Shown piece by piece: positions 7,567 to 42,442 of a stretch of 64,000 bases of DNA. The DNA comes from Phycisphaeraceae bacterium. GTDB lineage: Bacteria > Planctomycetota > Phycisphaerae > Phycisphaerales > UBA1924. Location of the stretch: contig JAHBXI010000003.1 of assembly GCA_019636515.1 (NCBI GenBank), positions 641,478 to 705,477 of the forward strand, in the 5' to 3' direction. The translations under genes were made by a program, and so were the position numbers. The notes under the pieces were generated by a model. That model was not told the origin of the DNA, made no database searches, and worked only from the letters and a program-made list of their open reading frames with translations. How positions within the stretch are numbered: the first letter of the stretch is position 1; every line of letters starts with the position of its first letter.

Positions 7567-7704
7567 GTTGAAGTGACCGCGTGGGTGCCTGGTTGCTTCC
7601 CCTGGCGGCGGTTGCGTTCACGGGGCCTCCTCCGTGGGGGTGGCCGTTGCGATTGGTTTGCCATTGGTTCGTCGCGGTTCATTCACCATCATCGAGGTTC
7701 AAGC

Positions 7705-9435
7705 ATGCCGATTTTCCAGCGTCTTGGCGGGTGTTCGTCGGTTGTGGCGGCCGCGTTTCTTTCCGGCGCGGCTTCGGCGGCTTTTGGGGGCTGGGCGGCA
7801 ACGCCCGTGGTGAAGGATGCTTCGGGGTGGTCCGGGACGGTGCTGGTGCGGACGGGGGCGTCGGCTCCGCGGGGATTCACCGCGCTGGCGGCGGACGAGG
7901 ATGGGATCGGCGGGCTGATGGCGGCGACCGAGGCGCTGGTGGCGGACCTGCCGCTGACGGGGGACCTCTCGATCGATGCGGTGCTGACCCGGATCGAGGT
8001 GTTCGGTCCCGAGACGGAACTGGTGGTCCACGGGGATGACGGGGAGCGTCGGATCGAGGCCCCTCCGGTGGCGAGTTTCCGCGGGACGGCGGCGGGGCAC
8101 GAGGACTCGGCGGTGTTCCTTTCGGTTTCGCCGTGGTGGATCTACGGGTACGCGATGGTGGGGGATCGGACGTACATCATCTCGACGGGACCCGCGGTGG
8201 ACCCTCGTCCGCCGGTGGTGTACGACCTTGCGGAGATCTCGGAGGAGGACCTTCGGATCGAGATCCCGGCGTGCCAGGCGGACCTGACGCGTGTGGTGGA
8301 GGGCGTGGCGCGTGAGCGGCGTGGCGGGTCGGTGGGGACTGGGCGGAGCGCCCCGTGCCGGGTGGCGAGGGTGGCGTTTGAATCGGACTACGAACTGACG
8401 CAGATCTTCGGTGGCAACGCGACGCTCTCGACGGGGTACATCGCGACGATGACGGCGGCGATGAACGACATTTACATACGTGACGTCAACACGCGGATGG
8501 TGGCGACGTACGTGCGGGTGTGGACGACGGCGGCGGACCCGTGGGACCAGCCCGGCGCGGGGGAGCAGTTGACCCAGTTCCGCAACTACTGGGTGCAGAA
8601 CATGTGGTCGGTGTCGCGGAACCTGGCGCATTTTCTGTCGGGTCGCGGGCTGGGCGGGGGGGTGGCGTGGCTGAGCGTGATGTGCAATTCGCAGTGGGGT
8701 TTTGCGTTGTCGGGGAACCTGGCGGGGGCGTTCCCGTACCCGCTGGAGGACAACCGCGGGAACAACTGGGACCCGTTCGTGGTGGCGCACGAGTTTGGCC
8801 ACAACTTCGGGACGCTGCACACGCACGACGGGTACACGCCGCCGATCGACACGTGCGGGAACGGGAACTGCGCGGGGTACTACATGAACGGGACGATCAT
8901 GTCGTACTGCCACCTGTGTACGTTCGGGATGCAGAACATCAAGTTGAAGTTCGGAGACCGGGTCTCGGATCGGATCCTGGAGTATCTGGCGGTGGAGGCT
9001 CCGTGCAAACTGGACGACCCGCCGAAGTTCAATTCCCATCCAACGGACAAGATCGTGAACCTGGGCGGAACGACGACGTTCACCACGGCGGTCACCTCGC
9101 CGGGGACGATGCAGTTCCAGTGGCTTCACGAGGACCAGGAGATCCCCGGCGCGACCGCTCAGAACCTGACCCTGACGAACGTGACGCCGGGGAACGTGGG
9201 GTCGTATCGCCTGAGGGCCACGAACCAGTGCCACACGACGCTGAGCAACGCGGCCACGCTCTTCATTCGGTGCCCGGCGGACTTCGACGGGAGCCTGTTC
9301 GTGGACAACGAGGACTTCACCGCGTTCGTGTACGCGTTCGTGGCGGGTGATATGTCGGCGGACTTTGACAAGTCCGGGTTCGTGGATATCGATGACTACG
9401 TGGCGTTCGTGGCGGCGTACGAGAACGGGTGCTGA
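7705..9435 (+). CDS. secreted zinc metalloprotease (HEFGHNFG zincin) with Ig-like domain and C-terminal GC-type dockerin
   Basis: Signal peptide MPIFQRLGGCSSVVAAAFLSGAASAA, HEFGHNFGTLHTHDG motif, and C-terminal DFDGSLFVDNEDFTAFVYAFVAGDMSADFDKSGFVDIDDYVAFVAAYENGC. Confidence 0.8.
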   Translation: MPIFQRLGGCSSVVAAAFLSGAASAAFGGWAATPVVKDASGWSGTVLVRTGASAPRGFTALAADEDGIGGLMAATEALVADLPLTGDLSIDAVLTRIEVFGPETELVVHGDDGERRIEAPPVASFRGTAAGHEDSAVFLSVSPWWIYGYAMVGDRTYIISTGPAVDPRPPVVYDLAEISEEDLRIEIPACQADLTRVVEGVARERRGGSVGTGRSAPCRVARVAFESDYELTQIFGGNATLSTGYIATMTAAMNDIYIRDVNTRMVATYVRVWTTAADPWDQPGAGEQLTQFRNYWVQNMWSVSRNLAHFLSGRGLGGGVAWLSVMCNSQWGFALSGNLAGAFPYPLEDNRGNNWDPFVVAHEFGHNFGTLHTHDGYTPPIDTCGNGNCAGYYMNGTIMSYCHLCTFGMQNIKLKFGDRVSDRILEYLAVEAPCKLDDPPKFNSHPTDKIVNLGGTTTFTTAVTSPGTMQFQWLHEDQEIPGATAQNLTLTNVTPGNVGSYRLRATNQCHTTLSNAATLFIRCPADFDGSLFVDNEDFTAFVYAFVAGDMSADFDKSGFVDIDDYVAFVAAYENGC

Positions 9436-9537: not shown

Positions 9538-10731
9538 TTAGCCGTTGCGGGCGGCGAAGTCCTTCATGAACTGGGCGAGGGCCTTGCAGCCGTCCTCGGG
9601 CATGGCGTTGTACATGCTGGCGCGCATGCCGCCGGTGGAGCGGTGGCCCTTCATGCCGTCGAGTCCCTGCGCGGCGGCCTGTGAGCAGAAGGCATCGTCG
9701 AGCGCAGGGGTCGGGCACTTGAAGGTGATGTTCATGAGGCTTCGGGCGTTCTTGTCGGCGTGCCCGCGGTAGAAGTTTCCCGAGGAGTCGATGGCCTGGT
9801 AGACGTGTCCGGCCTTGCGGATGTTGCGTTCGTGGATGACGTCGAGGCAGTGCCGCCCCGGCTGGGCGTGGGAGAGGATCCACTTGAAGACCAGGCCGCA
9901 GATGTGGATGGCAAAGACGGGCGGCGTGTTGGGCCGGCTCTCATCCTTGGCGAAGGTTTCGTAGCGCAGGAGCCAGGGGAGTTCACGGACTTTTCGAGAG
10001 GCCAGGTCGTCGCGGATGACGACGAGGGTGGTGCCCGCGGCGCCGAGGTTCTTCTGCGCGCCGGCGTAGACCAGGCCGTAGCGGGTGAAATCGACAGGCC
10101 TTGAATAGATGTCGCTCGACATGTCGCAGACGAGCGGGACACCGGGGGGCGCGACGGGGTCGCGCTGATGCCAGGTGCAGGCGCCGGCGGCGTCGGCCTT
10201 GTGCCACTGGGTGCCGTAGATGGTGTTGTTGGAGCAGAAGTGGACGTAGGCCGGGGCCTGGGAATAGCGGGCCTGGCCGTCGGCGGGGATGTAGGAGTGG
10301 TTGCGGTCCTTGCTGGTCGCGGCCTCGTGAAGCACGCCGTAAGGCCTGGCGTGTTCGAGGCTTTTCTCGGCCCAGTAGCCGGTGGTGATGTAGTCGGCGG
10401 GCTGGTCCTGGGGCTTGAGGTTGGCGGGAACCAGGAAGTTCTGGGAGGAGGCCCCCCCGGTCATGAACAGGACGTGGTAGTTTTCGGGAAGGTTTGAGAT
10501 GGCGCGGAAATCGTGCATGGCCTCGGCCAGGACTCGATCAAAGGCCTTGCCTCGGTGGCTGTGCTCGAGGATGCCGATGCCCGTCGCGGCGATGTTGAAG
10601 ACGTCCTTTTGGACCTGGGCCAGGACTTCCTCGGGCAGGCAGCCGGGACCGGCGGAAAAATTGAAGATGCGTCCCGAGGCGGTGCGTGAGACGGCGGCGT
10701 GGTTCGCGTGGGCGGGTGCGGCGGTACTCAT
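9538..10731 (-). CDS. serC: phosphoserine aminotransferase
   Basis: FNFSAGPG motif and class V aminotransferase fold; adjacent to serA. Confidence 0.9.
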   Translation of the reverse strand: MSTAAPAHANHAAVSRTASGRIFNFSAGPGCLPEEVLAQVQKDVFNIAATGIGILEHSHRGKAFDRVLAEAMHDFRAISNLPENYHVLFMTGGASSQNFLVPANLKPQDQPADYITTGYWAEKSLEHARPYGVLHEAATSKDRNHSYIPADGQARYSQAPAYVHFCSNNTIYGTQWHKADAAGACTWHQRDPVAPPGVPLVCDMSSDIYSRPVDFTRYGLVYAGAQKNLGAAGTTLVVIRDDLASRKVRELPWLLRYETFAKDESRPNTPPVFAIHICGLVFKWILSHAQPGRHCLDVIHERNIRKAGHVYQAIDSSGNFYRGHADKNARSLMNITFKCPTPALDDAFCSQAAAQGLDGMKGHRSTGGMRASMYNAMPEDGCKALAQFMKDFAARNG

Positions 10732-10876: not shown

Positions 10877-11878
10877 TCAGGAGACGGCGGCGGCGTTGAC
10901 GCAGTTCTCGGCGCGTCCGGATTCCATGAAGACGCGGACGATGCGGACGGTTTCGTCGGCGACGGCACGCTGGGCCTGGTCGGTGCTGGCGCCGACGTGG
11001 TGCGTCAGGACGCGGACGATGCCCGCGTCGGCCTGTGCGAGTCGGCAGTTCCAGGGTGCTTGCGTCTGGGCGGGGGCGTTCTCGTACACGTCGAGGCCGT
11101 ACCGGAGGTTTTTTTCCCTGGAGGCGGCGAGGAGGGCTTCTTCGTCGATGACGTTTCCGCGCGAGGTGTTGATGAGGTACGCGCCGGGCTTCATTCGGGA
11201 GATGAACTCTCGCCCGATGAGTTGGCGTGTGTCGGGCGCGGAGGGGAGGTGGATGGAGACGGCGTCACACCGGGAGGCCATGTCCCAGAGGGCGGGGGTG
11301 TCGGTGCCGGCCCATTGCGCGCCCAGGTCTCGGGCGTGTTCGCGAGTGATGGAGCGTGACCAGGCGAGGACGTTCATTTCGAAGGCGAGGGCGCGCTTCA
11401 TGACGGCGCGTCCGATGGCTCCGCAGCCGACGATGCCCAGGGTCATCCCTTTGAGCCCGCGTGCCTTTGAGAATTCTTTCTTGTTCCACTGACCGGCGAG
11501 CATGGCGGCGTTCTGTTCGCAGAGCCTGCGGTCGAGGGCGATGAGCAGTCCCATGGTGAGTTCGGCGACGGCGACGGCGTTCATGCCGGGGCAGTTGCTG
11601 ACGGGGATGCCGGCGGCGGAGGCGGTGGGGACGTCGATGTTGTCGTATCCGGCGCCGGCGCGGATGATGAGTTTGAGTCCCTTGGCGGACTTGATGGCGT
11701 CGGGGGTGACCTTGCTGGAGCGGACGATGAGGATGTCCGGGGAGGCTTGCCGGAGGGCGTCGGGGAGTCCTTCGGCGCCGGCCTTGGGCTCGTGGATGAC
11801 CTGGCAGCCCAGGGAACGGATGGCCTCGATGCCGGACGCCTCGAACGAATCCGCGATCATTGCCTTCACGTGGGTCAC
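10877..11878 (-). CDS. serA: D-3-phosphoglycerate dehydrogenase (2-hydroxyacid dehydrogenase family)
   Basis: NAD-binding GIVGCGAIGRAV and catalytic-domain signatures, upstream of serC. Confidence 0.85.
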   Translation of the reverse strand: MTHVKAMIADSFEASGIEAIRSLGCQVIHEPKAGAEGLPDALRQASPDILIVRSSKVTPDAIKSAKGLKLIIRAGAGYDNIDVPTASAAGIPVSNCPGMNAVAVAELTMGLLIALDRRLCEQNAAMLAGQWNKKEFSKARGLKGMTLGIVGCGAIGRAVMKRALAFEMNVLAWSRSITREHARDLGAQWAGTDTPALWDMASRCDAVSIHLPSAPDTRQLIGREFISRMKPGAYLINTSRGNVIDEEALLAASREKNLRYGLDVYENAPAQTQAPWNCRLAQADAGIVRVLTHHVGASTDQAQRAVADETVRIVRVFMESGRAENCVNAAAVS

Positions 11879-11946: not shown

Positions 11947-13014
11947 TCAGTTCCGCGTGGAGCCGGCGGTCGAGCGGGTGGTGAACCGGGCGTCGTCCAT
12001 GACGTAGAGTCCGACGAGCCAGTCTCCGGCGAGGTAGGGCTTGACGCCGAACTTCCCGGTGACTTCCCCCTGGGTGGCGTAGCGGTCGGACCCTTCGACG
12101 GGGGTTTTGAGGCGGACTTCGACGGCGTCGAAGGGGGTCGGGGGAACGCCGATGCAGCATCCATCCCACTGGTTGAGCATGGAAAGGAGTTCCTTGGGCT
12201 TGTCGACGTACATGGGGAAGGCGACGTAGCCGGTGAGCCGGACGTGCTTACCGTCGAGCATGGTGACGCGCTCGGGGAGGCGTTTTTTGCCGTCGCGGGG
12301 GTTGTACAACTCGCTGACGGAGATGAGGTGGTCCCAGGTGACCTCGTAGGGCTTTTCGGCGGTGCCGTCGCCCTTGACGACGAAGCGGCCGTCGATCTTG
12401 AGGTTGCCGTTGTCGAGTGTCTCGATTCTGGCGGGGATGGGTCCGGTTTCGGCGGGCGTGCCTGCTGATTCGGGTGTGCCTGCGGATTCGGGTGTGCCTG
12501 CGGATTCAGGGGTGTTTGTCTCGGGCGCGTTGGCGTTGGCCGGGTCCGGGGTTTGGAGAGGGGCGTGGTCGGGGGCGTGGTCGGGGGTGTCGGTCGTGGT
12601 CGTGGTTGATGCGGGGGCTGTGGAGGCTTGATCGGCGGGGCGTTCGATGGGATCGTCGGCCGGGGGGTCATCCGCCGGGGATGGAGCGGGGCTGGTGGTA
12701 TGGCTGGGGGTTAGGCTGGGGGTTTGGTCGGGGATTGGGTCGGGGATCGGGTCGGGGATTGGGTCTGGCGAGACGGCGGCGGGTGTGTGTGCGTGCTGCC
12801 CGGAGCGAGCGGGATCCGGCGGAGCGGGACGTGGCGGGGCTTGTTGGGCTGATTGTTGGGGTGGTTGTTCGGCGGCTTGCCTGGCCTGCCGGGCGTCCTG
12901 CAGTTGCTTCTGGGCGCGGGCGCGTGCCTGGTGTTCGAGCGAGCCGGAGGTGGTGATCCACGTGGCGGCGGCGGCGAAGATGATGATGGCGATGAGTGCC
13001 CAGAAGAGGCGCAT
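11947..13014 (-). CDS. DUF3299-like membrane-anchored protein with a long Pro/Ala/Thr-rich linker
   Basis: Start trimmed to Met95 (MRLFWALIAIIIFAAAATW TM helix). The conserved C-terminal domain is co-oriented downstream of an FtsX-type permease. Confidence 0.5.
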   Translation of the reverse strand: MRLFWALIAIIIFAAAATWITTSGSLEHQARARAQKQLQDARQARQAAEQPPQQSAQQAPPRPAPPDPARSGQHAHTPAAVSPDPIPDPIPDPIPDQTPSLTPSHTTSPAPSPADDPPADDPIERPADQASTAPASTTTTTDTPDHAPDHAPLQTPDPANANAPETNTPESAGTPESAGTPESAGTPAETGPIPARIETLDNGNLKIDGRFVVKGDGTAEKPYEVTWDHLISVSELYNPRDGKKRLPERVTMLDGKHVRLTGYVAFPMYVDKPKELLSMLNQWDGCCIGVPPTPFDAVEVRLKTPVEGSDRYATQGEVTGKFGVKPYLAGDWLVGLYVMDDARFTTRSTAGSTRN

Positions 13015-13087
13015 CGGCGAGTCTCCAGCCCCCCGTGTGCGTCCCGCGTGACGGTTGGCGACGCGGGGGGAAGATCCGTTCGCGTGT

Positions 13088-14440
13088 TCAACCGATCGGT
13101 CTGAGATTCTTCGCCACGGCGGTGCGGTACGCCATGACGGCGGGGATGATTCCGGCGAGCGACGCGAGGATGACGGCGGCGGCGACGACGACCAGGACCA
13201 CGGGGGGAGAGAGGGCGGGTTCGATGGCCAGGCCGACCTGTGACTTGAGGGTCTCGGCGGCGGCGCGGACCCCGGCGAGGCTGAGCAGGACGCCAACGGC
13301 GGCCCCGGCGAGCCCGAGCGTGGCCGATTCGGTCATGACCAGGCCGAAGACTCGGGGCCGGCTGCATCCCAGGACTCGCAGGACGGCGATCTGTCGTCGT
13401 CGCTGTTCCATGGAGTTGTAAAGGGCGACCATGATGGCGATGCCGCTGGAGACCATGACAACCACGGCCATGGCGACAAAGACCCGGTCGATGTTACCGA
13501 CGATGGTGAAGAGGCGGTCGATTTCCTGGCGTGGTGAGGCGACGGTGATGGTGGAATCCCGGCGCAACTGGTCAAAGACCTGCGGGAGGTTGGCGGGGGT
13601 GTCGGAGTTGGCGCGGGTGATGAGGCGCCCGTAGATCCCGGTGATAAGGCGGTCCTGGTCGGTGAGGTCTTCCTCGCAGATGAGTTCGCCGTGGTCGTGG
13701 TGGTGGTCGTGGTCGCACTCCTCGTCGTCGGCGTGCTCGTGGTCGTGGTCGTGGTGGTGCCCCTCGCGTTCGAGACGGTCGTAGGCGTGCATGAGCCATG
13801 AACTGGCCAGGGTGGTGAACAAGGCCCGGTCGTGGCTTCCGCCGGTGGGCGCCAGGACGCCGACGACGGTGAAGAGGAACTCGTCGTGCTGGTGCCCGGC
13901 GTCGGGATCGGCGGTGTTGGAGGCGGCTCCGTGGGTGAGTTGGATCCGGTCGCCGACCTTGAGGCGGGCGCTGGCGGCGGCGGAAGCGCCGGCGACGATC
14001 TCGAAGTTTTTCTCAAAGAACCGGCCCGAGGCGAGCGACCAGGACTCCCCGGGGTTTGGCATGAACCTGGTGAAGAACTCGTGCGTGGTGGCCATGACGG
14101 GGATTCGCCCCTGGTAACTGTCCCCGAGTTGGTTTGGAACAAAGTAATCCCATGGGGCGGAGGCGGCGAGTTGCTCGTACTTGGCCCAGGTGATGGGCCG
14201 CCGCGGGGCGTTGGCGTGGAAGACGCCGTTGAGGACGCTGACCAGGGGCGAGGCGTCGGCGCTGATGACCAGGTGCATGTCCCCCGAGCCTCGTGCGAAG
14301 GCCTTGCGTCCGGCGTCTCGCATCATGAGGAGGGTGAGCAGGAGGGCGACGGCGACGGCGACCGTGACGGTGGTGGTCACGGTGGAAAAAAGCCGTGAGG
14401 TGAGGGAGCGTTGGATGATCGTCCAGTCGGTGAGGGCCAT
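13088..14440 (-). CDS. ABC transporter permease, FtsX/MacB-like, with a His-rich periplasmic insert
   Basis: N-terminal TM helix, large periplasmic domain and C-terminal FtsX 3-TM bundle. The insert is EREGHHHDHDHEHADDEECDHDHHHDHGE. Start trimmed to Met55. Confidence 0.8.
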   Translation of the reverse strand: MALTDWTIIQRSLTSRLFSTVTTTVTVAVAVALLLTLLMMRDAGRKAFARGSGDMHLVISADASPLVSVLNGVFHANAPRRPITWAKYEQLAASAPWDYFVPNQLGDSYQGRIPVMATTHEFFTRFMPNPGESWSLASGRFFEKNFEIVAGASAAASARLKVGDRIQLTHGAASNTADPDAGHQHDEFLFTVVGVLAPTGGSHDRALFTTLASSWLMHAYDRLEREGHHHDHDHEHADDEECDHDHHHDHGELICEEDLTDQDRLITGIYGRLITRANSDTPANLPQVFDQLRRDSTITVASPRQEIDRLFTIVGNIDRVFVAMAVVVMVSSGIAIMVALYNSMEQRRRQIAVLRVLGCSRPRVFGLVMTESATLGLAGAAVGVLLSLAGVRAAAETLKSQVGLAIEPALSPPVVLVVVAAAVILASLAGIIPAVMAYRTAVAKNLRPIG

Positions 14441-14552
14441 TGCCTGGAAGTGTATCAGGGCGGGATGGCGGATCCGGCCGGAGGGGTGGTGGCCATACGA
14501 TGCGACGGGTGACGCCCCGCGAACCTTGCGGTCGATCGCGGGTCGTTGAATC

Positions 14553-16172
14553 GTGTCGGGCACTTTCTCCATGGCATCACGATCTCCGGCACCGGTCGTC
14601 ATCTCTCTCCCGCGTGGTCTTCAGACCGGCGGGGTGACGACGTGGGCGGTGCGTACGGCCGGGGCGATGGCGCGGCGTGGCCGCGCTGCATGCCTGGTGG
14701 TGCACCGTGAGGATGTGGGTTCGGATCGCCTGGGGTTCGAGGTCCCGGGCGAGATCCGTGTGATCGACCTCTCGGGCCTTCCGCCGCTGGACGGCGCCGG
14801 CGGAGATCTTTCGCGGGTCATCCCGCCGTACCGGGATGCGGTGCGGGCGCTGGCGCGTGAGACGGGCCGGCCGGTGGTGATGATCCCGACGCTGCTTGGT
14901 GACAGTTTCGGGGTGGCGGCGGCGCTGACGCTGACGGACCCGGAGTTGCTGCGCGTGGTGGGATGGTGTCACTCCCCGATCGCGTACGACGCGGCGGTTC
15001 TCGACCATTACGAAAGGGTGATCGCGCGGTTCGCGGCGGTCAGCGATCCGATCGCGGCCGGGCTTCGTTCGCGTCATCCTTCGCGAGCGGGTGAGATCGA
15101 CGTGGTGTACCACGGGGTGGAGGCTCCGCGCGAGCGTCCCGGGCGTCCCGCGCTGGCGGGCCGCGCGCTGATGCTGGTGTACGCGGGGCGCGTGGAGGAT
15201 GACCTCAAGCGCGTGGTGTCGCTGGTGGCGATCTCCGATTCGCTGCGGAGGGCGGGGGTTGGGCATCGCCTGACGATCGTCGGGGATGGCCCGGCGAGCG
15301 GGCGGGTTGATGCGCTGATCGCGGAGGGCCGCACGGACCGGATTCGGCGTTTGTCGGCGGTTCCTCCCGACCGTGTGCAGGGGCTGATGGCCGAGCACGA
15401 CGTATTCGTTCTGCCTTCCCGCGTGGAGGGGATGCCCCTGGCCGCGCTGGAGGCGATGGCGGTCGGGTGCGTGCCGGTGATGAGGAGGACGGAGACGGGC
15501 TCGCGAGTGCTCGCCGAGCACGGGGTCTCGGGCGTGTTCGTGGAGGTGGGCGACGACGCGGATGATGCGGCGGTGGGTGAGGCGTTCGCGGGGGCGATTG
15601 TCGGGGCGATGGGTGGAAGGATGGGGGCGGGTATCGATCGGATGTCGGAGGCGGCGCACCGCCGCGCGAGGGAGCGGTTTTCGATGGAGGCGTACGCGGA
15701 TTGGGCGGAACGGGTGATCGATGCGGCGGCTTCGTCGGCCCCGCGGGCATGGCCGGCGGATCGGCCGTGTGCGTTTACCTCCTTGTCAGGATCGAGCGGT
15801 TCGGGGGCGGTTCCCTCCGGCGGGGCGTGGCGTCTTGGGGAGTTGCTCGGTGCTCTGGCGGGCCGGCGCGTGGTGGTACACGGGGTCGGACGACACACGA
15901 TCGAACTGGGGAGCGTGTTCGCGGGTTCTGGGGCGGGGATCGTCGCGTTCTGTGACGATGACCCTTCCCGGCAGGGCGGGACGATCTGGAACTGGCCGAT
16001 CGTTTCCCCGTCGTCGGCGGGCCGGACCGGGGCGACGGATGTGGTGATCAGTTCGTGGATGAATCAGGAGGCGATCTGGGATCGCCGCGCGGTGTACGAG
16101 CGTCAGGGAATGAGCGTTCATCGCCTGTACGACGTGGTGGACGGGCCTGGAGCCCGTCCGCCGGGGGTGTGA
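14553..16172 (+). CDS. glycosyltransferase family 4 fused to a C-terminal Rossmann-like (PglD/NeuD N-domain-like) module
   Basis: GT4 C-domain EGMPLAALEAMAVGCVPV plus an extra about 150-aa C-terminal domain. Confidence 0.75.
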   Translation: MSGTFSMASRSPAPVVISLPRGLQTGGVTTWAVRTAGAMARRGRAACLVVHREDVGSDRLGFEVPGEIRVIDLSGLPPLDGAGGDLSRVIPPYRDAVRALARETGRPVVMIPTLLGDSFGVAAALTLTDPELLRVVGWCHSPIAYDAAVLDHYERVIARFAAVSDPIAAGLRSRHPSRAGEIDVVYHGVEAPRERPGRPALAGRALMLVYAGRVEDDLKRVVSLVAISDSLRRAGVGHRLTIVGDGPASGRVDALIAEGRTDRIRRLSAVPPDRVQGLMAEHDVFVLPSRVEGMPLAALEAMAVGCVPVMRRTETGSRVLAEHGVSGVFVEVGDDADDAAVGEAFAGAIVGAMGGRMGAGIDRMSEAAHRRARERFSMEAYADWAERVIDAAASSAPRAWPADRPCAFTSLSGSSGSGAVPSGGAWRLGELLGALAGRRVVVHGVGRHTIELGSVFAGSGAGIVAFCDDDPSRQGGTIWNWPIVSPSSAGRTGATDVVISSWMNQEAIWDRRAVYERQGMSVHRLYDVVDGPGARPPGV

Positions 16173-16581: not shown

Positions 16582-17520
16582 TCAGCGATTGATGTCTCGG
16601 CCCTTGATCCCAAAGCGGGTTGCCCAGAACCAGGCGGGGTACATGTTTGAGTCGTTGGCGCCGTTTTCGAGTTCATCCTTGCCCATGTCGTACTTGGTGA
16701 GCGTGGCCTGGGTGATGTCCCACAGTCCCGAGGGGGTGAACTGCTCCTTGGTCTTTGGGGTATCGGAGGCACTGAGCAGGACGAGGTCCTCGATCTTGAC
16801 GGGTCCGGCGCTGTTGTCGCTGAAGACAACCTGCGGCTGGGCGGTGGTGGCGCAGAAGGTGGGCGAGAGCGGGAGCGAGCCGACGGCACTGGGTCGGGTG
16901 ACCTTCGAGAAATCGAAGCGTTCGAAGATCATGGCCTTGGCGTGCGGGAACGTGATCTCGGCGAAGGTGTTCCGGCGGACGAGGCTCTGCACGGCGGGGA
17001 CAAGCGAGGCGGTGTCGTAGCGCGACGAGCGGAACCACATGGTCGGGGACATGAAGTACGAGCCGTCCCAGATGTACCGCTCGAGGTCCTTGTAGGTGTT
17101 CATGAAGTTCTTGAAGCGGATGAGGACGGACTTGTCGAGCGGGGCGAACTGCACGGCGGACGTGAGACCCGCCGCGGATGAGTCGTTCCAGTGCATCATG
17201 AGGCTGGCCCAGTGCGCCGCGAACATCTCGGTCGAGCGGTTGCCGTCGGAGAAGATCCACTGCATGGTCTTGTTGCTGCCGGGAACCCAGACCGAGCGCC
17301 AGGTTGGCGTCGGCTCGAAGGGGTTGAACAGTTGTTCCTTGTTTTCCTGCGAGTAGGAGAAGCACAACTGGTTCAAGGACCGGAGGTTGTTGAGGCTGAC
17401 GGTGCCCTTGGCCAGCCGGTTGGACTTGGACAGTCCCGGGATCAGGATCCCGATCAGCAGGGCGAGCACGGCAATGACCACGAGGAGTTCGATGAGGGTG
17501 AACGCTCGATGCGATGACAT
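16582..17520 (-). CDS. DUF1559 / prepilin-type N-terminal cleavage-methylation domain protein (H-X9-DG family)
   Basis: RAFTLIELLVVIAVLALLIGILIPGL; this family is hugely expanded in Planctomycetota. Start trimmed to Met29. Confidence 0.85.
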   Translation of the reverse strand: MSSHRAFTLIELLVVIAVLALLIGILIPGLSKSNRLAKGTVSLNNLRSLNQLCFSYSQENKEQLFNPFEPTPTWRSVWVPGSNKTMQWIFSDGNRSTEMFAAHWASLMMHWNDSSAAGLTSAVQFAPLDKSVLIRFKNFMNTYKDLERYIWDGSYFMSPTMWFRSSRYDTASLVPAVQSLVRRNTFAEITFPHAKAMIFERFDFSKVTRPSAVGSLPLSPTFCATTAQPQVVFSDNSAGPVKIEDLVLLSASDTPKTKEQFTPSGLWDITQATLTKYDMGKDELENGANDSNMYPAWFWATRFGIKGRDINR

Positions 17521-17870
17521 GGAAAACCTCCTGCCTGGCGTCCGAATCCGTCGCCGGTGCTTGCAGAACATCGACCGGCCCGATCCGGGTGATAACTCGA
17601 ACACACCCCTCTTTAGATTATCGCCGGTGGATTGGATTGGTTTCTTCGATAATTGCAGATTTCAACCAAAGTGACGACCAAAGGCCAAAATCAGGGCACT
17701 GCAAGGGTGAATACCCCAGGGAATGGGGATCCTCCGCGAGGAAGCGTCCCTGAAATGACCGACGCCGCTCGGATGAGCGGCGTCGGCGTCCCTGCCTCCA
17801 GTTCGGTGATCCGGCGGCCGGGTCTTCCTGCGGACCGCGGGCGTGCCGGTTGGGCGTTCAGGGTCGGCGT

Positions 17871-18749
17871 TCAGGGTCGGCGTCGTCGCGCGGCGAAGAG
17901 GACACCGGCCAGGAGGGCGATGGTGCCCGGGGCTGGGATGTAGACAAGCCCCTGTGGTCCGCCGTTGATGACATCGACGATGGTCCAGGTGTGGAAGTCG
18001 GGGATGTCGATGTTGCCGTCTTTCCAGTCTTTCTTGAAGGCGTTCTTGAGGTTGTCGGTAACGGGCCCCCAGGCGGCGGGCGCGCCGTAGAGGGTTCCAT
18101 CGACGGTGACCTGCCCGGCGTTGATGCGGAATCCCCAGATGAACGAGCCGATGAACTCGACTTTCTGGTCGGTCAGGTTGACCAGAGCCAGGGACATCTC
18201 GGCCTTCCAGACTTCGTTGACGTTCAGCGGGCGGTCGGGGTAGTCGTCGAATTCCTGTGTGTCGGCGTTGAATTGTCCGTAGCGGGGGTCGTTGGTGACG
18301 TTGCCGGTGTCGATGAACCACTCGCCGGGACCGGCCTTCCAGGGCTGGACGCCGGGGTTGGTCTCGGCGCTGACGGCCTGGATGAAGGCGAAGGACCAGT
18401 TGGGGGAGAGTTGGACGAAGTTGGGGAGGCTCTTGACGTAATCGGCCCAGGCGCCTCCGGTGCCGGACATGGGCCCGTCGGCGATCGCCCCGTGGGTGCC
18501 CTTGTAGAGTTGGTGCTCGGCCTTCATGGATCCGATCGGCTTGAACTGCGGCCCCATGTTTTTGACGGGGTGGAAGAGGTCGAACTCGATGGCGGTCTTG
18601 GCGCCGACGGTGCTGAGGAGTTTGTAGCCGTCGGCGAAGGTGTAGGGGAGTTGGTCCTGGGTGATGACGCCGGCGGAGGCGGCCGAGATGGCCAATCCGG
18701 CGAAGGCGATGACGACGACGGACGAGGCGTGGATCGAGCGATTCCTCAT
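17871..18749 (-). CDS. PEP-CTERM sorting domain protein
   Basis: Signal peptide; C-terminal IPAPGTIALLAGVLFAARRRRP (PEP-like motif, TM helix, Arg-rich tail). Confidence 0.8.
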   Translation of the reverse strand: MRNRSIHASSVVVIAFAGLAISAASAGVITQDQLPYTFADGYKLLSTVGAKTAIEFDLFHPVKNMGPQFKPIGSMKAEHQLYKGTHGAIADGPMSGTGGAWADYVKSLPNFVQLSPNWSFAFIQAVSAETNPGVQPWKAGPGEWFIDTGNVTNDPRYGQFNADTQEFDDYPDRPLNVNEVWKAEMSLALVNLTDQKVEFIGSFIWGFRINAGQVTVDGTLYGAPAAWGPVTDNLKNAFKKDWKDGNIDIPDFHTWTIVDVINGGPQGLVYIPAPGTIALLAGVLFAARRRRP

Positions 18750-18923
18750 GTCTTGCTCCCTCTGCTTTTCGTGGTCTGTCAATGGGAATTGGCCGGTGTC
18801 GTTCCCCGCGCGGGCTGGGCCGGCGGATGGCGGAACGGCCATTCTCGGGATTCCTCACGTCGGTGCAAGAAAAATGCGACCTGGCCGTGGGAGGCCCGAC
18901 CGGCTCAGGCGCGAGGTCCGGGA

Positions 18924-40861: not shown

Positions 40862-42262
40862 TCAGCACCCGTTCTCGAACGAGGCGACAAAGGAAGTGAA
40901 GTCCTCGATGTCGACGAATCCCGAGCCGTCGAAGTCGGCGGTGTCGTCGCCGTCCTCGAAGGCGGCGATGAAGGCCGCGTAGTCCTCGATATCGACGAAT
41001 CCCGAGCCGTCGAAGTCGGCTCCGCACAGGGCGTTGACGGCGAGGGTCGTCCAGGCGCGCGTGGCGAGGTCGCTCTGGGAGCGTGCCGAAATGAGGAAGG
41101 AGGCCAACGCCGGCTCGTCGAGAGCGGGGATCGATACGGCCAGGGCGATGACGGCGGACTGCCCGGGGGGGATCGACGGGGTGACGGGCGGATCGAAGGC
41201 GATCGGCCAGGCGGAGCCTTCGGCGAGCAGGGCGTACGCCGCGGGCACCGTTGCCGTGTTGGTCACGGTGAGCGTGGTCTGGACGGTCTGGCCGGCGGGG
41301 CCTGTGATCGCGGGCGCGTCGGGGCCGACGGTGGCGTACGGCTGCGCGAGGGTTGAGAGTCGTGGATCGTCGTCGAGCGCGGGTCCCCAGACGGCGTTCC
41401 AGAGGGTCTGATCCTGGCGGAGGTGGAGGGAGAAAAACTCGGTCAGGAGACGGCGGACGATCGAGAGTTGCTCGCTTCGGGGCATGGACCCGGTGTCGCA
41501 ACCGAAGGTCTGGGAGTCGGTGAACCCGCAGTGAAAGCCCCCGAGGATGAGAGCGCGGCGTTTGGGGGCGGGCGTGTTGGCGTACATGACCTGGCCGTTG
41601 GGGCCGGGAGGGACGATGGTGTCCTGGGAGCCGTCGATGTACATCGACGGGCACGGGACCGAGAGAGCGGCGGTCTTGGAGGAGGGGTTGGTGTCGGCGG
41701 CGGCGAGCGGCGCCAGGGCCTTGACGCGAGGATCGTCGTCGGCGGCGAGTATGGCACATCCGCCCCCCATCGAGTGCCCCGACATGCCGAAGGCCGCGGT
41801 GTTCACGGATCCGAAGAGGAACGAGACCGGGTTTGCGTTCTGTTGCTCGAGGTAGGTGAGGCCATGGCGCATGTCGGCGGCCAGGCCGGGGTGGCTGGGG
41901 AAGAGCGAGCCTTCGCTCTCGCTGGCGATGACGAGAAAGCCGTGGGTGGCGAGGTGTTCGAGAGTGGACTGGTACCGGCTGACGGGCTGGAAAAAGCCGT
42001 GCCCGAAGGAGACGGCTGGGCAAGGCCCCGAGGAGGGGTCGAAGGGGGTGTTTTGTCCGGCGGAAAGGGCGGGGTAGAAGAGGACGGCGGAGAACGTGGA
42101 GTTGTTCGGGCGGGTGACGGTCACCGTCCGATAACCGGGCTGGAATGGTCCCGGCGCCGAGAGATCTCCGCGGGCGATGGCCGGGAGGCAGGCGGCGACG
42201 GCCAGCAGGATGGCCAGCGTCGGGCGTAAAGCGAGCGTGAATGCAGCGATGCCATGCGGCAT
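40862..42262 (-). CDS. secreted alpha/beta hydrolase with C-terminal GC-type dockerin
   Basis: GHSMGGG nucleophile elbow; C-terminal DFDGSGFVDIEDYAAFIAAFEDGDDTADFDGSGFVDIEDFTSFVASFENGC. Confidence 0.75.
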   Translation of the reverse strand: MPHGIAAFTLALRPTLAILLAVAACLPAIARGDLSAPGPFQPGYRTVTVTRPNNSTFSAVLFYPALSAGQNTPFDPSSGPCPAVSFGHGFFQPVSRYQSTLEHLATHGFLVIASESEGSLFPSHPGLAADMRHGLTYLEQQNANPVSFLFGSVNTAAFGMSGHSMGGGCAILAADDDPRVKALAPLAAADTNPSSKTAALSVPCPSMYIDGSQDTIVPPGPNGQVMYANTPAPKRRALILGGFHCGFTDSQTFGCDTGSMPRSEQLSIVRRLLTEFFSLHLRQDQTLWNAVWGPALDDDPRLSTLAQPYATVGPDAPAITGPAGQTVQTTLTVTNTATVPAAYALLAEGSAWPIAFDPPVTPSIPPGQSAVIALAVSIPALDEPALASFLISARSQSDLATRAWTTLAVNALCGADFDGSGFVDIEDYAAFIAAFEDGDDTADFDGSGFVDIEDFTSFVASFENGC

Positions 42263-42442
42263 GAAACGACCTCTCATTCGCGTTTGATTCCGTGGCGTGG
42301 CCGACCAGTGCGTGCCGTGGCGAACGCCATGGCGTCCATCGTACCTGATGGGAGGCCACGGGCGAAGCGCATTCGCATCAACGGCATGAGCGGATGCCGG
42401 ATCGGCGTGGGTTTCGAGCGGGGAATGTCGTCCTGGGCGTGT

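Follow-up and report, generated by a model that had tools for sequence, protein, structure and literature searches.

A split-operon FtsX/MacB-type permease with a His-rich periplasmic loop and a tethered DUF3299 partner in a Phycisphaeraceae bacterium

The permease and its DUF3299 partner

We analysed a 64 kb stretch of DNA from a Phycisphaeraceae bacterium (contig JAHBXI010000003.1), which is GC-rich (about 67%) and is called the window throughout. On its minus strand, a gene for an FtsX/MacB-type ATP-binding cassette (ABC) permease is followed by a gene for a membrane-tethered DUF3299-like protein (Table 1). We conclude with high confidence that this pair belongs to the Zrg/PA4064-66 family and that its operon is split. 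An earlier note on this DNA had described an FtsX/MacB-type permease with a poly-His/Asp periplasmic stretch and, co-oriented downstream, a DUF3299-like gene with a long Pro/Thr-rich linker. This description was borne out by the domain searches, including the profile check of DUF3299 that the note had proposed, by the exact location of the His-rich string and by the composition of the linker.

The permease is 100% identical to the NCBI protein P0001 from a Phycisphaeraceae metagenome-assembled genome (MAG). It matches Pfam FtsX (PF02687, 4.8e-16, 59.3 bits with a cut-off of 25.5) and MacB_PCD (PF12704, 3.9e-11, 44.1 bits with a cut-off of 27). The open frame can be extended to position 14602, giving 504 aa, and the 54 added residues contain no nucleotide-binding motif. 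MALTDW or MTDW is the start in the NCBI model and in 25 aligned homologues. An ATPase fused within the 504-aa frame was rejected, since the extension lacks the motifs of a nucleotide-binding domain (NBD) and the homologues start at MALTDW.

A scan of one genome per species matched the permease in 336 species, and the best 80 loci were taken. Nearly all of these are labelled Phycisphaerae or Planctomycetota, with permeases of 52-71% identity. Neighbouring genes were counted in a set of 85 loci, some of which are cut by contig ends. The window clade (loci L001-L008, L010 and L057) comprises loci whose permease is at least 66% identical to that of the window.

The AlphaFold2 (AF2) model of the permease, built with 26 homologues, had a mean predicted local distance difference test (pLDDT) score of 85 and a predicted template modelling (pTM) score of 0.77. 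It starts with an N-terminal elbow helix and the first transmembrane helix (TM1, residues 17-51), followed by a periplasmic domain of mixed alpha/beta structure (about 52-302), TM2 (303-342), a short cytoplasmic helix (344-356), TM3 and TM4. The pLDDT fell below 50 in two stretches, residues 174-179 and residues 235-250; the second is the core of the His-rich insert EREGHHHDHDHEHADDEECDHDHHHDHGE, which is thus predicted to be disordered. Foldseek matched the model to MacB (5lil), LolCDE (LolC/E), the pneumococcal transporter 5xu1, HrtB(A) and YbbAP in the Protein Data Bank (PDB), with a probability of 1.00 and E-values from 1e-9 to 2e-14, and also to YtrF, BceB and FtsX. The modelled fold places the permease among the membrane subunits of type VII ABC systems (MacB/FtsX superfamily). 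It shares with MacB, LolCDE, HrtBA and YbbAP the four-helix topology, the Porter/Sabre-type periplasmic domain and the coupling helix. It differs from these systems in sequence (12-16% identity), scores far below the NCBIfam cut-offs and has no MacA/TolC partners nearby; unlike MacB, it has no fused NBD.

Identity with any one of these systems was examined and rejected. The LolCDE model TIGR02212 gave 37.9 bits against a cut-off of 362, the FtsX models 24-25 against 225-255, and the MacB model 11.1 against 966. Scores far below the cut-offs and missing partner genes led us to reject LolCDE, FtsEX, MacAB and BceAB alike. We found no MacA-type adaptor or TolC-like gene among the neighbours, either in the window or in its relatives.

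In type VII transporters, the coupling helix is the contact with the ABC ATPase. Eight residues of this region (R347, R348, R349, Q350, A352, R355, V356 and G358) are invariant in the permease alignment, and the motif EQRRRQIAVLRVLG is invariant in the clade. A profile search of PDB sequences aligned the TM2-TM4 region of the permease. In this alignment the loop EQRRRQIAVLRVLGAS was matched to DKKSDIAILRTLGAS of LolF, and the loops of LolF, YtrF and MacB follow the pattern '..DIAILRTLGAS'.

In 72 of the 85 loci, a homologue of the DUF3299-like gene comes immediately after the permease gene, and the remainder are mostly contig ends. The window domain alone reached 24.8 bits with PF11736 (cut-off 22), and the long open reading frame (ORF) reached 22.1 bits. 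PF11736 was matched by 37/42 relatives with a best E-value of 1.2e-9, and no other family competed. The sole PDB sequence match was to 4hsp, which has the OB-like fold of PA4066. It was weak, with an E-value of 0.05 for the single sequence and 0.03 for a 42-sequence profile, and the motif G-x-C-I-x-V-P-P-x-P is aligned in it. An hhalign comparison with the Phaeobacter DUF3299 protein gave an E-value of 4.4e-5. The single-sequence AF2 model of the domain had a pLDDT of 39, too low to be of use. By these profile matches, the DUF3299 assignment is correct and denotes a divergent subfamily; it is robust for the family and weak for the single window sequence.

The protein is anchored by a hydrophobic sequence (MRLFWALIAIIIFAAAATW) at its N-terminus. 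An N-terminal hydrophobic helix (Kyte-Doolittle hydropathy of at least 1.8) was found in 62/70 loci, and most of these proteins begin with M[RK]xFW. The linker of the window protein consists to 77% of P, T, A, S, D and Q, with 36 Pro, 30 Ala and 19 Thr, and across the family the linker varies from 4 to 293 aa (median 135). The core motif of the domain, in full N-x-W-D-G-C-C-I-G-V-P-P-T-P-Y/F-D-A-x-E, is invariant. Its Cys-Cys pair distinguishes the Phycisphaerae proteins from the proteobacterial ones, which have Cys-x-His. This 'WDGCC' subfamily comprises 517 representative clusters (50% identity, E-value of 1e-3 or lower), and among the 150 best matches listed the domain stands at or near the C-terminus of proteins of 198-486 aa.

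Table 1. Features of the permease locus and its surroundings, in window coordinates
Feature	Position	Strand	Remarks
Permease gene	13088-14440	-	FtsX/MacB-type; 450 aa; start MALTDWTII
His/Asp/Glu-rich insert EREGHHHDHDHEHADDEECDHDHHHDHGE	13685-13771	-	Residues 224-252; exact string located; between TM1 and TM2, periplasmic domain
Coupling helix YNSMEQRRRQIAVLRVLGCSRP	13355-13420	-	Cytoplasmic loop after TM2; most conserved stretch of the family
Membrane-tethered DUF3299-like gene	11947-13014	-	355 aa; co-oriented, 73 nt downstream of the permease stop
N-terminal anchor MRLFWALIAIIIFAAAATWITTSG	12943-13014	-	Hydrophobic helix
Low-complexity Pro/Ala/Thr/Asp/Gln linker	12442-12942	-	167 aa; repeats DPIP (x3) and TPESAG (x3)
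C-terminal DUF3299-like domain	11950-12441	-	164 aa; PF11736 match
Invariant motif N-x-WDGCCIGVPPTP(Y/F)DA-x-E	12133-12168	-	From the alignment of the family
Intergenic region, permease/GT4	14441-14552	.	-10-like hexamer TACACT, 14449-14454 (-)
GT4 glycosyltransferase gene	14553-16172	+	Pfam Glyco_trans_1_4, Glycos_transf_1, GT4-conflict; divergent
serA-like gene	10877-11878	-	Same strand as the pair, downstream
serC-like gene	9538-10731	-	Same strand as the pair, downstream

Location of the ATPase gene

The earlier note had also stated that the ATPase expected upstream of the permease is missing and that a divergent GT4 gene occupies its place, and it left two explanations, a split operon or an ATPase-less, non-canonical FtsX system. 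Both statements hold for the window. Using phmmer with a family ATPase (E-value up to 10) and motif scans, we found no ABC ATPase adjacent to the permease gene, fused to it or elsewhere in the 64 kb. In 69 of the 80 related Phycisphaerae loci, an ATPase orthologue identified by phmmer lies directly upstream of the permease gene, often overlapping its start, so that the usual arrangement is an ATPase-permease-DUF3299 operon. The upstream ATPase is absent from the window clade, from L019 and from L036; in four more loci without it, the contig begins too close to the permease gene to judge.

A scan of the 85 loci for LSGG[QE] had found almost no ATPase, as if it were absent from the whole family. 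This was rejected as an artefact of the motif, because the true signature is LS[VI]GQQQR, as was recognised in locus L029. The permeases of L019 (10001-11365) and L036 (1557-2921) lie outside the window clade and have no adjacent ATPase, and that of L019 also has no downstream DUF3299 gene. These two loci may be independent rearrangements or assembly problems.

We searched a large protein collection with a profile of three operon-linked ATPases, and found unlinked orthologues (P0143, P0148 and P0192) in the window clade. P0143 has 234 aa, is 72% identical to an operon-linked ATPase and contains LSVGQQQR; it apparently lies on the window's own 758,941-bp contig. P0148 and the window-clade permease P0004 are encoded on the same contig, which at 4,629,746 bp has the size of a complete genome. 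The ATPase locus (4,307,940-4,328,626) and the permease locus (2,127,767-2,149,158) are about 2.18 Mb apart. P0192 (AMXMBFR58_08080) and the permease P0002 (AMXMBFR58_20950) belong to the same MAG (GCA_045863535.1), with the ATPase on BTVF01000003 and the permease on BTVF01000010. The search for a cognate ATPase elsewhere in the genome, which the earlier note had proposed, thus located it on the same contig in one relative and on another contig in a second.

Directly behind the orphan ATPase gene come argH and a gene for an ornithine carbamoyltransferase, and no permease gene adjoins it. Its upstream neighbours encode a PAS-GerE regulator, a His-rich membrane protein of small size, an N_methyl/DUF1559-like protein and one or two secreted proteins that we call hyp258. 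In intact operons with enough upstream sequence, the ATPase is preceded on the same strand by N_methyl in 28/59 loci, hyp258 in 22/59 and PAS-GerE in 24/59. The simplest history to be read from these gene orders is an ancestral cluster ending in N_methyl-hyp258-ATPase-permease-DUF3299, from which the permease-DUF3299 pair would have moved off in the ancestor of the window clade. The pair now adjoins the GT4 gene, and most members of the clade also have serA-serC next to it. A GT4 gene upstream of the permease was seen in the window clade only (11 loci); it is outside the system and marks the upstream edge of the relocated pair. The ATPase kept its old neighbourhood; the genes are split, and the machine is not ATPase-less.

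An orphan permease that is decaying, as a relic after loss of the ATPase, or that works without ATP as a sensor would also explain why no ATPase lies within 64 kb and why a divergent GT4 gene has taken the upstream position. We consider this very improbable. At least 11 clade loci have the two ORFs intact, at 66-72% identity, the coupling helix is invariant, and an orthologous unlinked ATPase without an adjacent permease is kept in a conserved context in three clade genomes. Because this orthologue is retained in the window clade, together with the invariant EQRRRQIAVLRVLG of the permease, the ATPase-less system offered by the earlier note is not needed, and the split operon that it offered as the other explanation is the one that stands.

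We also examined the sequences around the relocated pair. The -10-like hexamer TACACT ends 8 nt ahead of the permease ATG. A TAnnnT hexamer 5-8 nt before the ATG is found in the window and in six clade relatives, and the remaining intergenic sequence is not conserved. This suggests that the relocated pair is probably transcribed from a promoter of its own, as an mRNA with a short leader or none. A sigma-70 consensus scan gave no promoter site, and terminator-like sites were at chance level. No k-mer was common to the regions upstream of the permease and upstream of the orphan ATPase. There was no Fur-family gene near the pair, and across the 85 loci the only such match was a weak one in L077. 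In one subclade of relatives (L016, L018 and L051), a perfect 16-bp palindrome, TGAGAACGCGTTCTCA, lies shortly upstream of the start of the operon ATPase and is a candidate operator; it had no better-than-chance match in the window.

The genes upstream of the ATPase form a same-strand cluster 1-4 kb from it, consisting of PAS-GerE, the N_methyl/DUF1559-like gene and one or two hyp258/hyp226 paralogues. The cluster was seen in L011, L013, L016, L018, L031, L037, L038, L046, L058, L070, L078, L085 and other loci, and its genes may be further parts of the system. The small membrane protein upstream of the orphan ATPase (L092 7403-7858, L089 6528-7046) combines a CxxC-like motif with the His-rich stretch HGISHHSHESVVHVHGDADAGHGHDHHEHG. 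It matches DUF2946 just below the threshold (22.5 against 23.7 bits) and was found in only four loci.

Just past the GT4 gene of the window, 16582-17604 (-) encodes a prepilin-type N_methyl protein (MSSHRAFTLIELLVVIAVLALLIGIL...). Its match to the N_methyl protein from the ATPase cluster is weak (E-value 5e-8), and it is probably one of many planctomycete paralogues. A 323-aa ORF at 17871-18842 (-) has a PEP-CTERM-like tail, PAPGTIALLAGVLFAARRRRP, and a similar tail is found in the hyp226 protein beside the orphan ATPase (L089 9034-9714). The M12B metalloprotease-like ORF at 7573-9435 (+) closes with a C-terminal acidic repeat, DFDxSGFVDxDDFxxFVxAFExG(C), which has a dockerin-like look and weak EF-hand matches. 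The repeat also occurs in secreted hyp258 proteins upstream of the ATPase (L092 9013-9789, L089 8073-8858). A further window ORF, 40865-42442 (-), matches the hyp258 query, probably through this repeat, which may be a surface-anchoring or Ca-binding module of Phycisphaerae.

The GC skew of the plus strand is very strong and uniform over the window (1-64000), mostly 0.12-0.31 per 2 kb, with lower values in two of the first 4 kb blocks. It persists although the minus strand holds somewhat more coding sequence, and it is far above typical replication skew.

The His-rich loop and the relation to Zrg-type operons

To place the permease among known systems, we searched 72,556 plasmids with it by tblastn. 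The best matches sit inside Zrg-type operons, at 25% identity over 89% coverage (E-values 5e-13 to 3e-16), and the Phycisphaerae permeases align end to end with those of Phaeobacter, Catenovulum and Deinococcus. On the Phaeobacter inhibens plasmid NZ_CP081272, the gene order is a Fur-family regulator, ZrgA (PF10986, 1e-48), ATPase, permease and DUF3299 (3.8e-37). The Catenovulum operon consists of DUF3299, ATPase and permease, and Deinococcus pMP1 has an ATPase and a permease. The Phaeobacter and Catenovulum ATPases carry LS[VI]GQQQR, and their matches to the Phycisphaerae ATPases reach about 1e-47 and about 1e-40, respectively. The Deinococcus ATPase also reaches about 1e-40, but its signature position reads LSTGERQR. 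Since the permease, the ATPase and the DUF3299 partner are all matched in Zrg-type operons, the same system is indicated. On Deinococcus radiodurans pMP1, the ATPase-permease pair is preceded by a gene for a 152-aa hypothetical protein (L088 2737-3195). This protein has no Pfam match, but its sequence GYMAPP...FFVLT...CPFC resembles the DUF3299 core motif, and it may be related to DUF3299 at a great distance.

The zrg operon of Vibrio parahaemolyticus encodes an ABC permease, an ATPase, ZrgA (DUF2796) and the DUF3299 protein ZrgE, and Zn deficiency induces its genes 76- to 206-fold (PMC9817125). Growth under Zn limitation requires ZrgA, whose His-rich loop contributes further Zn sites yet is dispensable in vivo (PMC9820375). 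In the PA4063-PA4066 operon of Pseudomonas aeruginosa, the structure 4hsp is that of PA4066 (PMC8561739). PA4064 is the ATPase and PA4065 the permease of this operon, a MacB-type pair for which export of a pyochelin-cobalt complex was proposed from the fold (PMC11481552). The His-rich loops of ZrgA and PA4063 add low-affinity Zn sites (PMC9820375, PMC8561739).

The His-rich insert was then compared across the family. Where the flanking motifs could be parsed, the loop contained at least five His in 71/95 homologues and one His or none in 10/95, and its length ranged from 20 to 82 aa. In P0011, a member of the window clade, it is short and His-poor (22 aa, 2 His), and the Phaeobacter, Catenovulum and Deinococcus permeases have no such insert. 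Judged on these sequences, the His-rich stretch is no chance run. By analogy, the permease loop behaves like the flexible His-rich loops of ZrgA and PA4063, and we propose that it is a low-affinity metal-capture loop. Its composition is kept and its sequence and size vary, as in the flexible His/Asp/Glu loops of ZnuA-type zinc solute-binding proteins (SBPs). The loop is dispensable in some homologues, a point that has been discussed for ZrgA and cluster A-I SBPs (PMC9820375). Unlike in ZnuA, the fold is a different one, and the loop sits on an ABC membrane subunit rather than on a soluble binding protein.

Outside the loop, several positions of the periplasmic domain are kept in 26/26 aligned Phycisphaerae permeases: H56, T169-H170-G171, H185, H203-D204-R205 and W215...H218. 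H183 is at least 90% conserved in the same alignment. H170, H185, D204 and H218 are also present in all three of the Phaeobacter, Catenovulum and Deinococcus permeases, in which Asp replaces H56 and Val replaces H203. The His of the THG motif is unmatched in LolF, within the single short periplasmic stretch that aligned. This gives a weak indication that the conserved His/Asp positions may be specific to this permease family.

Compared with ZrgABCDE of V. cholerae and V. parahaemolyticus and with the Phaeobacter operon, the window pair has in common the FtsX/MacB_PCD permease aligned over its full length, the residues H170, H185, D204 and H218, and the adjoining DUF3299 gene, and its Phycisphaerae relatives and unlinked orthologue have the LS[VI]GQQQR ATPase. 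Unlike the Zrg systems, it has no ZrgA and no adjacent Fur/Zur gene, and the ATPase is unlinked in the window clade. A phmmer search with the Phaeobacter ZrgA (E-value up to 0.01) found no ZrgA/DUF2796 homologue in the window or in the 85 loci. The permease differs from Zrg permeases in its His-rich insert and in having His at positions 56 and 203. The DUF3299 protein differs from its Zrg counterpart in its membrane anchor, its 167-aa linker and its Cys-Cys pair in place of Cys-x-His.

With PA4063-PA4066, the pair shares the 4hsp match with its GxC-I-x-V-PP-x-P motif, and the system shares the split architecture, MacB-type with the NBD and the transmembrane domain (TMD) on separate proteins (PMC11481552); PA4065 was compared by description, and the 4hsp match is weak (E-value 0.03). 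In P. aeruginosa, the metal-binding element, disordered His-rich loops, is on the separate Zn/Co-binding protein PA4063 (PMC8561739), whereas here it is in cis on the permease. Taken together, these comparisons describe a known and poorly understood class of transporter. New here are the unlinked ATPase, in this clade only, the absence of ZrgA, the His-rich loop in cis and the tethered Cys-Cys DUF3299 protein.

Proposed role of the system

The pair probably represents the membrane and periplasmic parts of a Phycisphaerae counterpart of the ZrgABCDE/PA4063-PA4066 type VII ABC machine, with the ATPase gene encoded elsewhere. In such a machine, the dimer of the unlinked ATPase would dock on the conserved coupling helix of the permease, itself presumably a dimer, and the TM helices would relay ATP hydrolysis to the periplasmic domain, in the manner of other MacB-type transporters. 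The His/Asp/Glu loop, the conserved His/Asp positions or both would collect a divalent metal, most likely Zn(II). The loop would act like the His-rich loops of ZrgA and PA4063, which work in trans. The DUF3299 domain, with its invariant Cys-Cys...PPxP, would be carried on a long flexible tether from the inner-membrane anchor and serve as the periplasmic hand-off partner.

A metal role is plausible because of the homology to Zrg-type, zinc-regulated operons, the His-rich loop and the conserved His/Asp positions, and we rather favour the view that the system handles metal. A role specifically in Zn acquisition is possible, but we suggest it with clear reserve. It is with similar caution that we propose a streamlined Zrg-like machine, in which the periplasmic domain of a type VII permease would itself contain a metal-collecting element, made of the disordered His/Asp loop and the conserved His/Asp set that ZrgB/PA4065-type permeases of proteobacteria have in part, with the DUF3299 partner tethered.

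Several observations weigh against the reading of the pair as part of a Zrg-type, metal-handling machine. The His-rich loop is missing in about 10% of the family, including P0011, and so is non-essential. The identity to the proteobacterial permeases is just about 25%, and Zn binding by PA4066 is not evident (PMC11481552). Neither a metal-responsive regulator nor a Zur box was seen in the vicinity of the genes. The DUF3299 match of the window protein is weak when taken alone (24.8 bits; E-value 0.03-0.05 for 4hsp). Finally, the placement of P0143 on the window's contig was inferred from the 758,941-bp longest-contig figure that it has in common with P0001, not from a reading of the contig.

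A non-metal role would make the His-rich loop incidental low complexity and assign the machine to the handling of envelope or surface proteins, namely the N_methyl (pseudopilin-like/DUF1559) and hyp258 proteins. The frequent same-strand position of the N_methyl, hyp258 and PAS-GerE genes ahead of the ATPase (see above) is in line with such a role, as are the members that do without the His-rich loop and the action of other type VII systems (LolCDE, FtsEX) on proteins. However, a role of this kind would leave unexplained the phylum-spanning conservation of the invariant His/Asp positions, which are common to the Zur-linked proteobacterial homologues. The Zrg operons also have the same atypical ATPase signature and DUF3299 partner, the upstream cluster contains a second His-rich protein, the small membrane protein, and the permease falls far short of the NCBIfam cut-offs for LolCE and FtsX. 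We therefore regard a non-metal role as improbable.

For a metal-handling machine, the direction of transport has to be considered. The net flow could be acquisition, as the Vibrio Zrg genetics suggest, or it could carry a metal or metal chelate outwards, which is the proposal made for PA4064/65; the sequence is compatible with both. Working as an exporter, the same machine would expel excess metal, a metal chelate or a metallophore from the periplasm or the inner membrane, as in the pyochelin-cobalt efflux proposed for PA4064/PA4065. The MacB type VII fold belongs to a class known for outward or periplasmic mechanotransmission, not for import, export by PA4064/65 has been argued (PMC11481552), and the long DUF3299 tether could reach the outer membrane. 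However, the conserved neighbours include neither a MacA-type adaptor nor a TolC-like gene, the surroundings of the pair in the window contain no genes for metallophore biosynthesis, and genetic work in Vibrio ties Zrg to growth when Zn is limiting (PMC9820375, PMC9817125). We consider export unlikely, though less so than the other alternatives.

The Zrg/PA4063-PA4066 systems are strongly zinc-regulated in pathogens and their mechanism is disputed, being seen either as a zinc importer with ZrgA as its binding protein or as a MacB-type exporter of cobalt-pyochelin. The structure of their DUF3299 component has been solved, and its function is not known. The distant and widespread Phycisphaerae homologue points to the permease periplasmic domain and the DUF3299 protein as the conserved core of these systems. 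The residues conserved between the Phycisphaerae and proteobacterial homologues make a short list that is testable in PA4065 or in the Vibrio permease. The locus also matters to genome annotation and to function calls that are made automatically from operons, as an apparently ATPase-less ABC permease turned out to be half of a split operon. If the proposed metal-collecting element is real, the whole transporter family would handle metal primarily at the periplasmic domain of the permease and not on a soluble binding protein, and this domain would provide a concrete, mutable site for resolving what the Zrg/PA4063-66 systems move.

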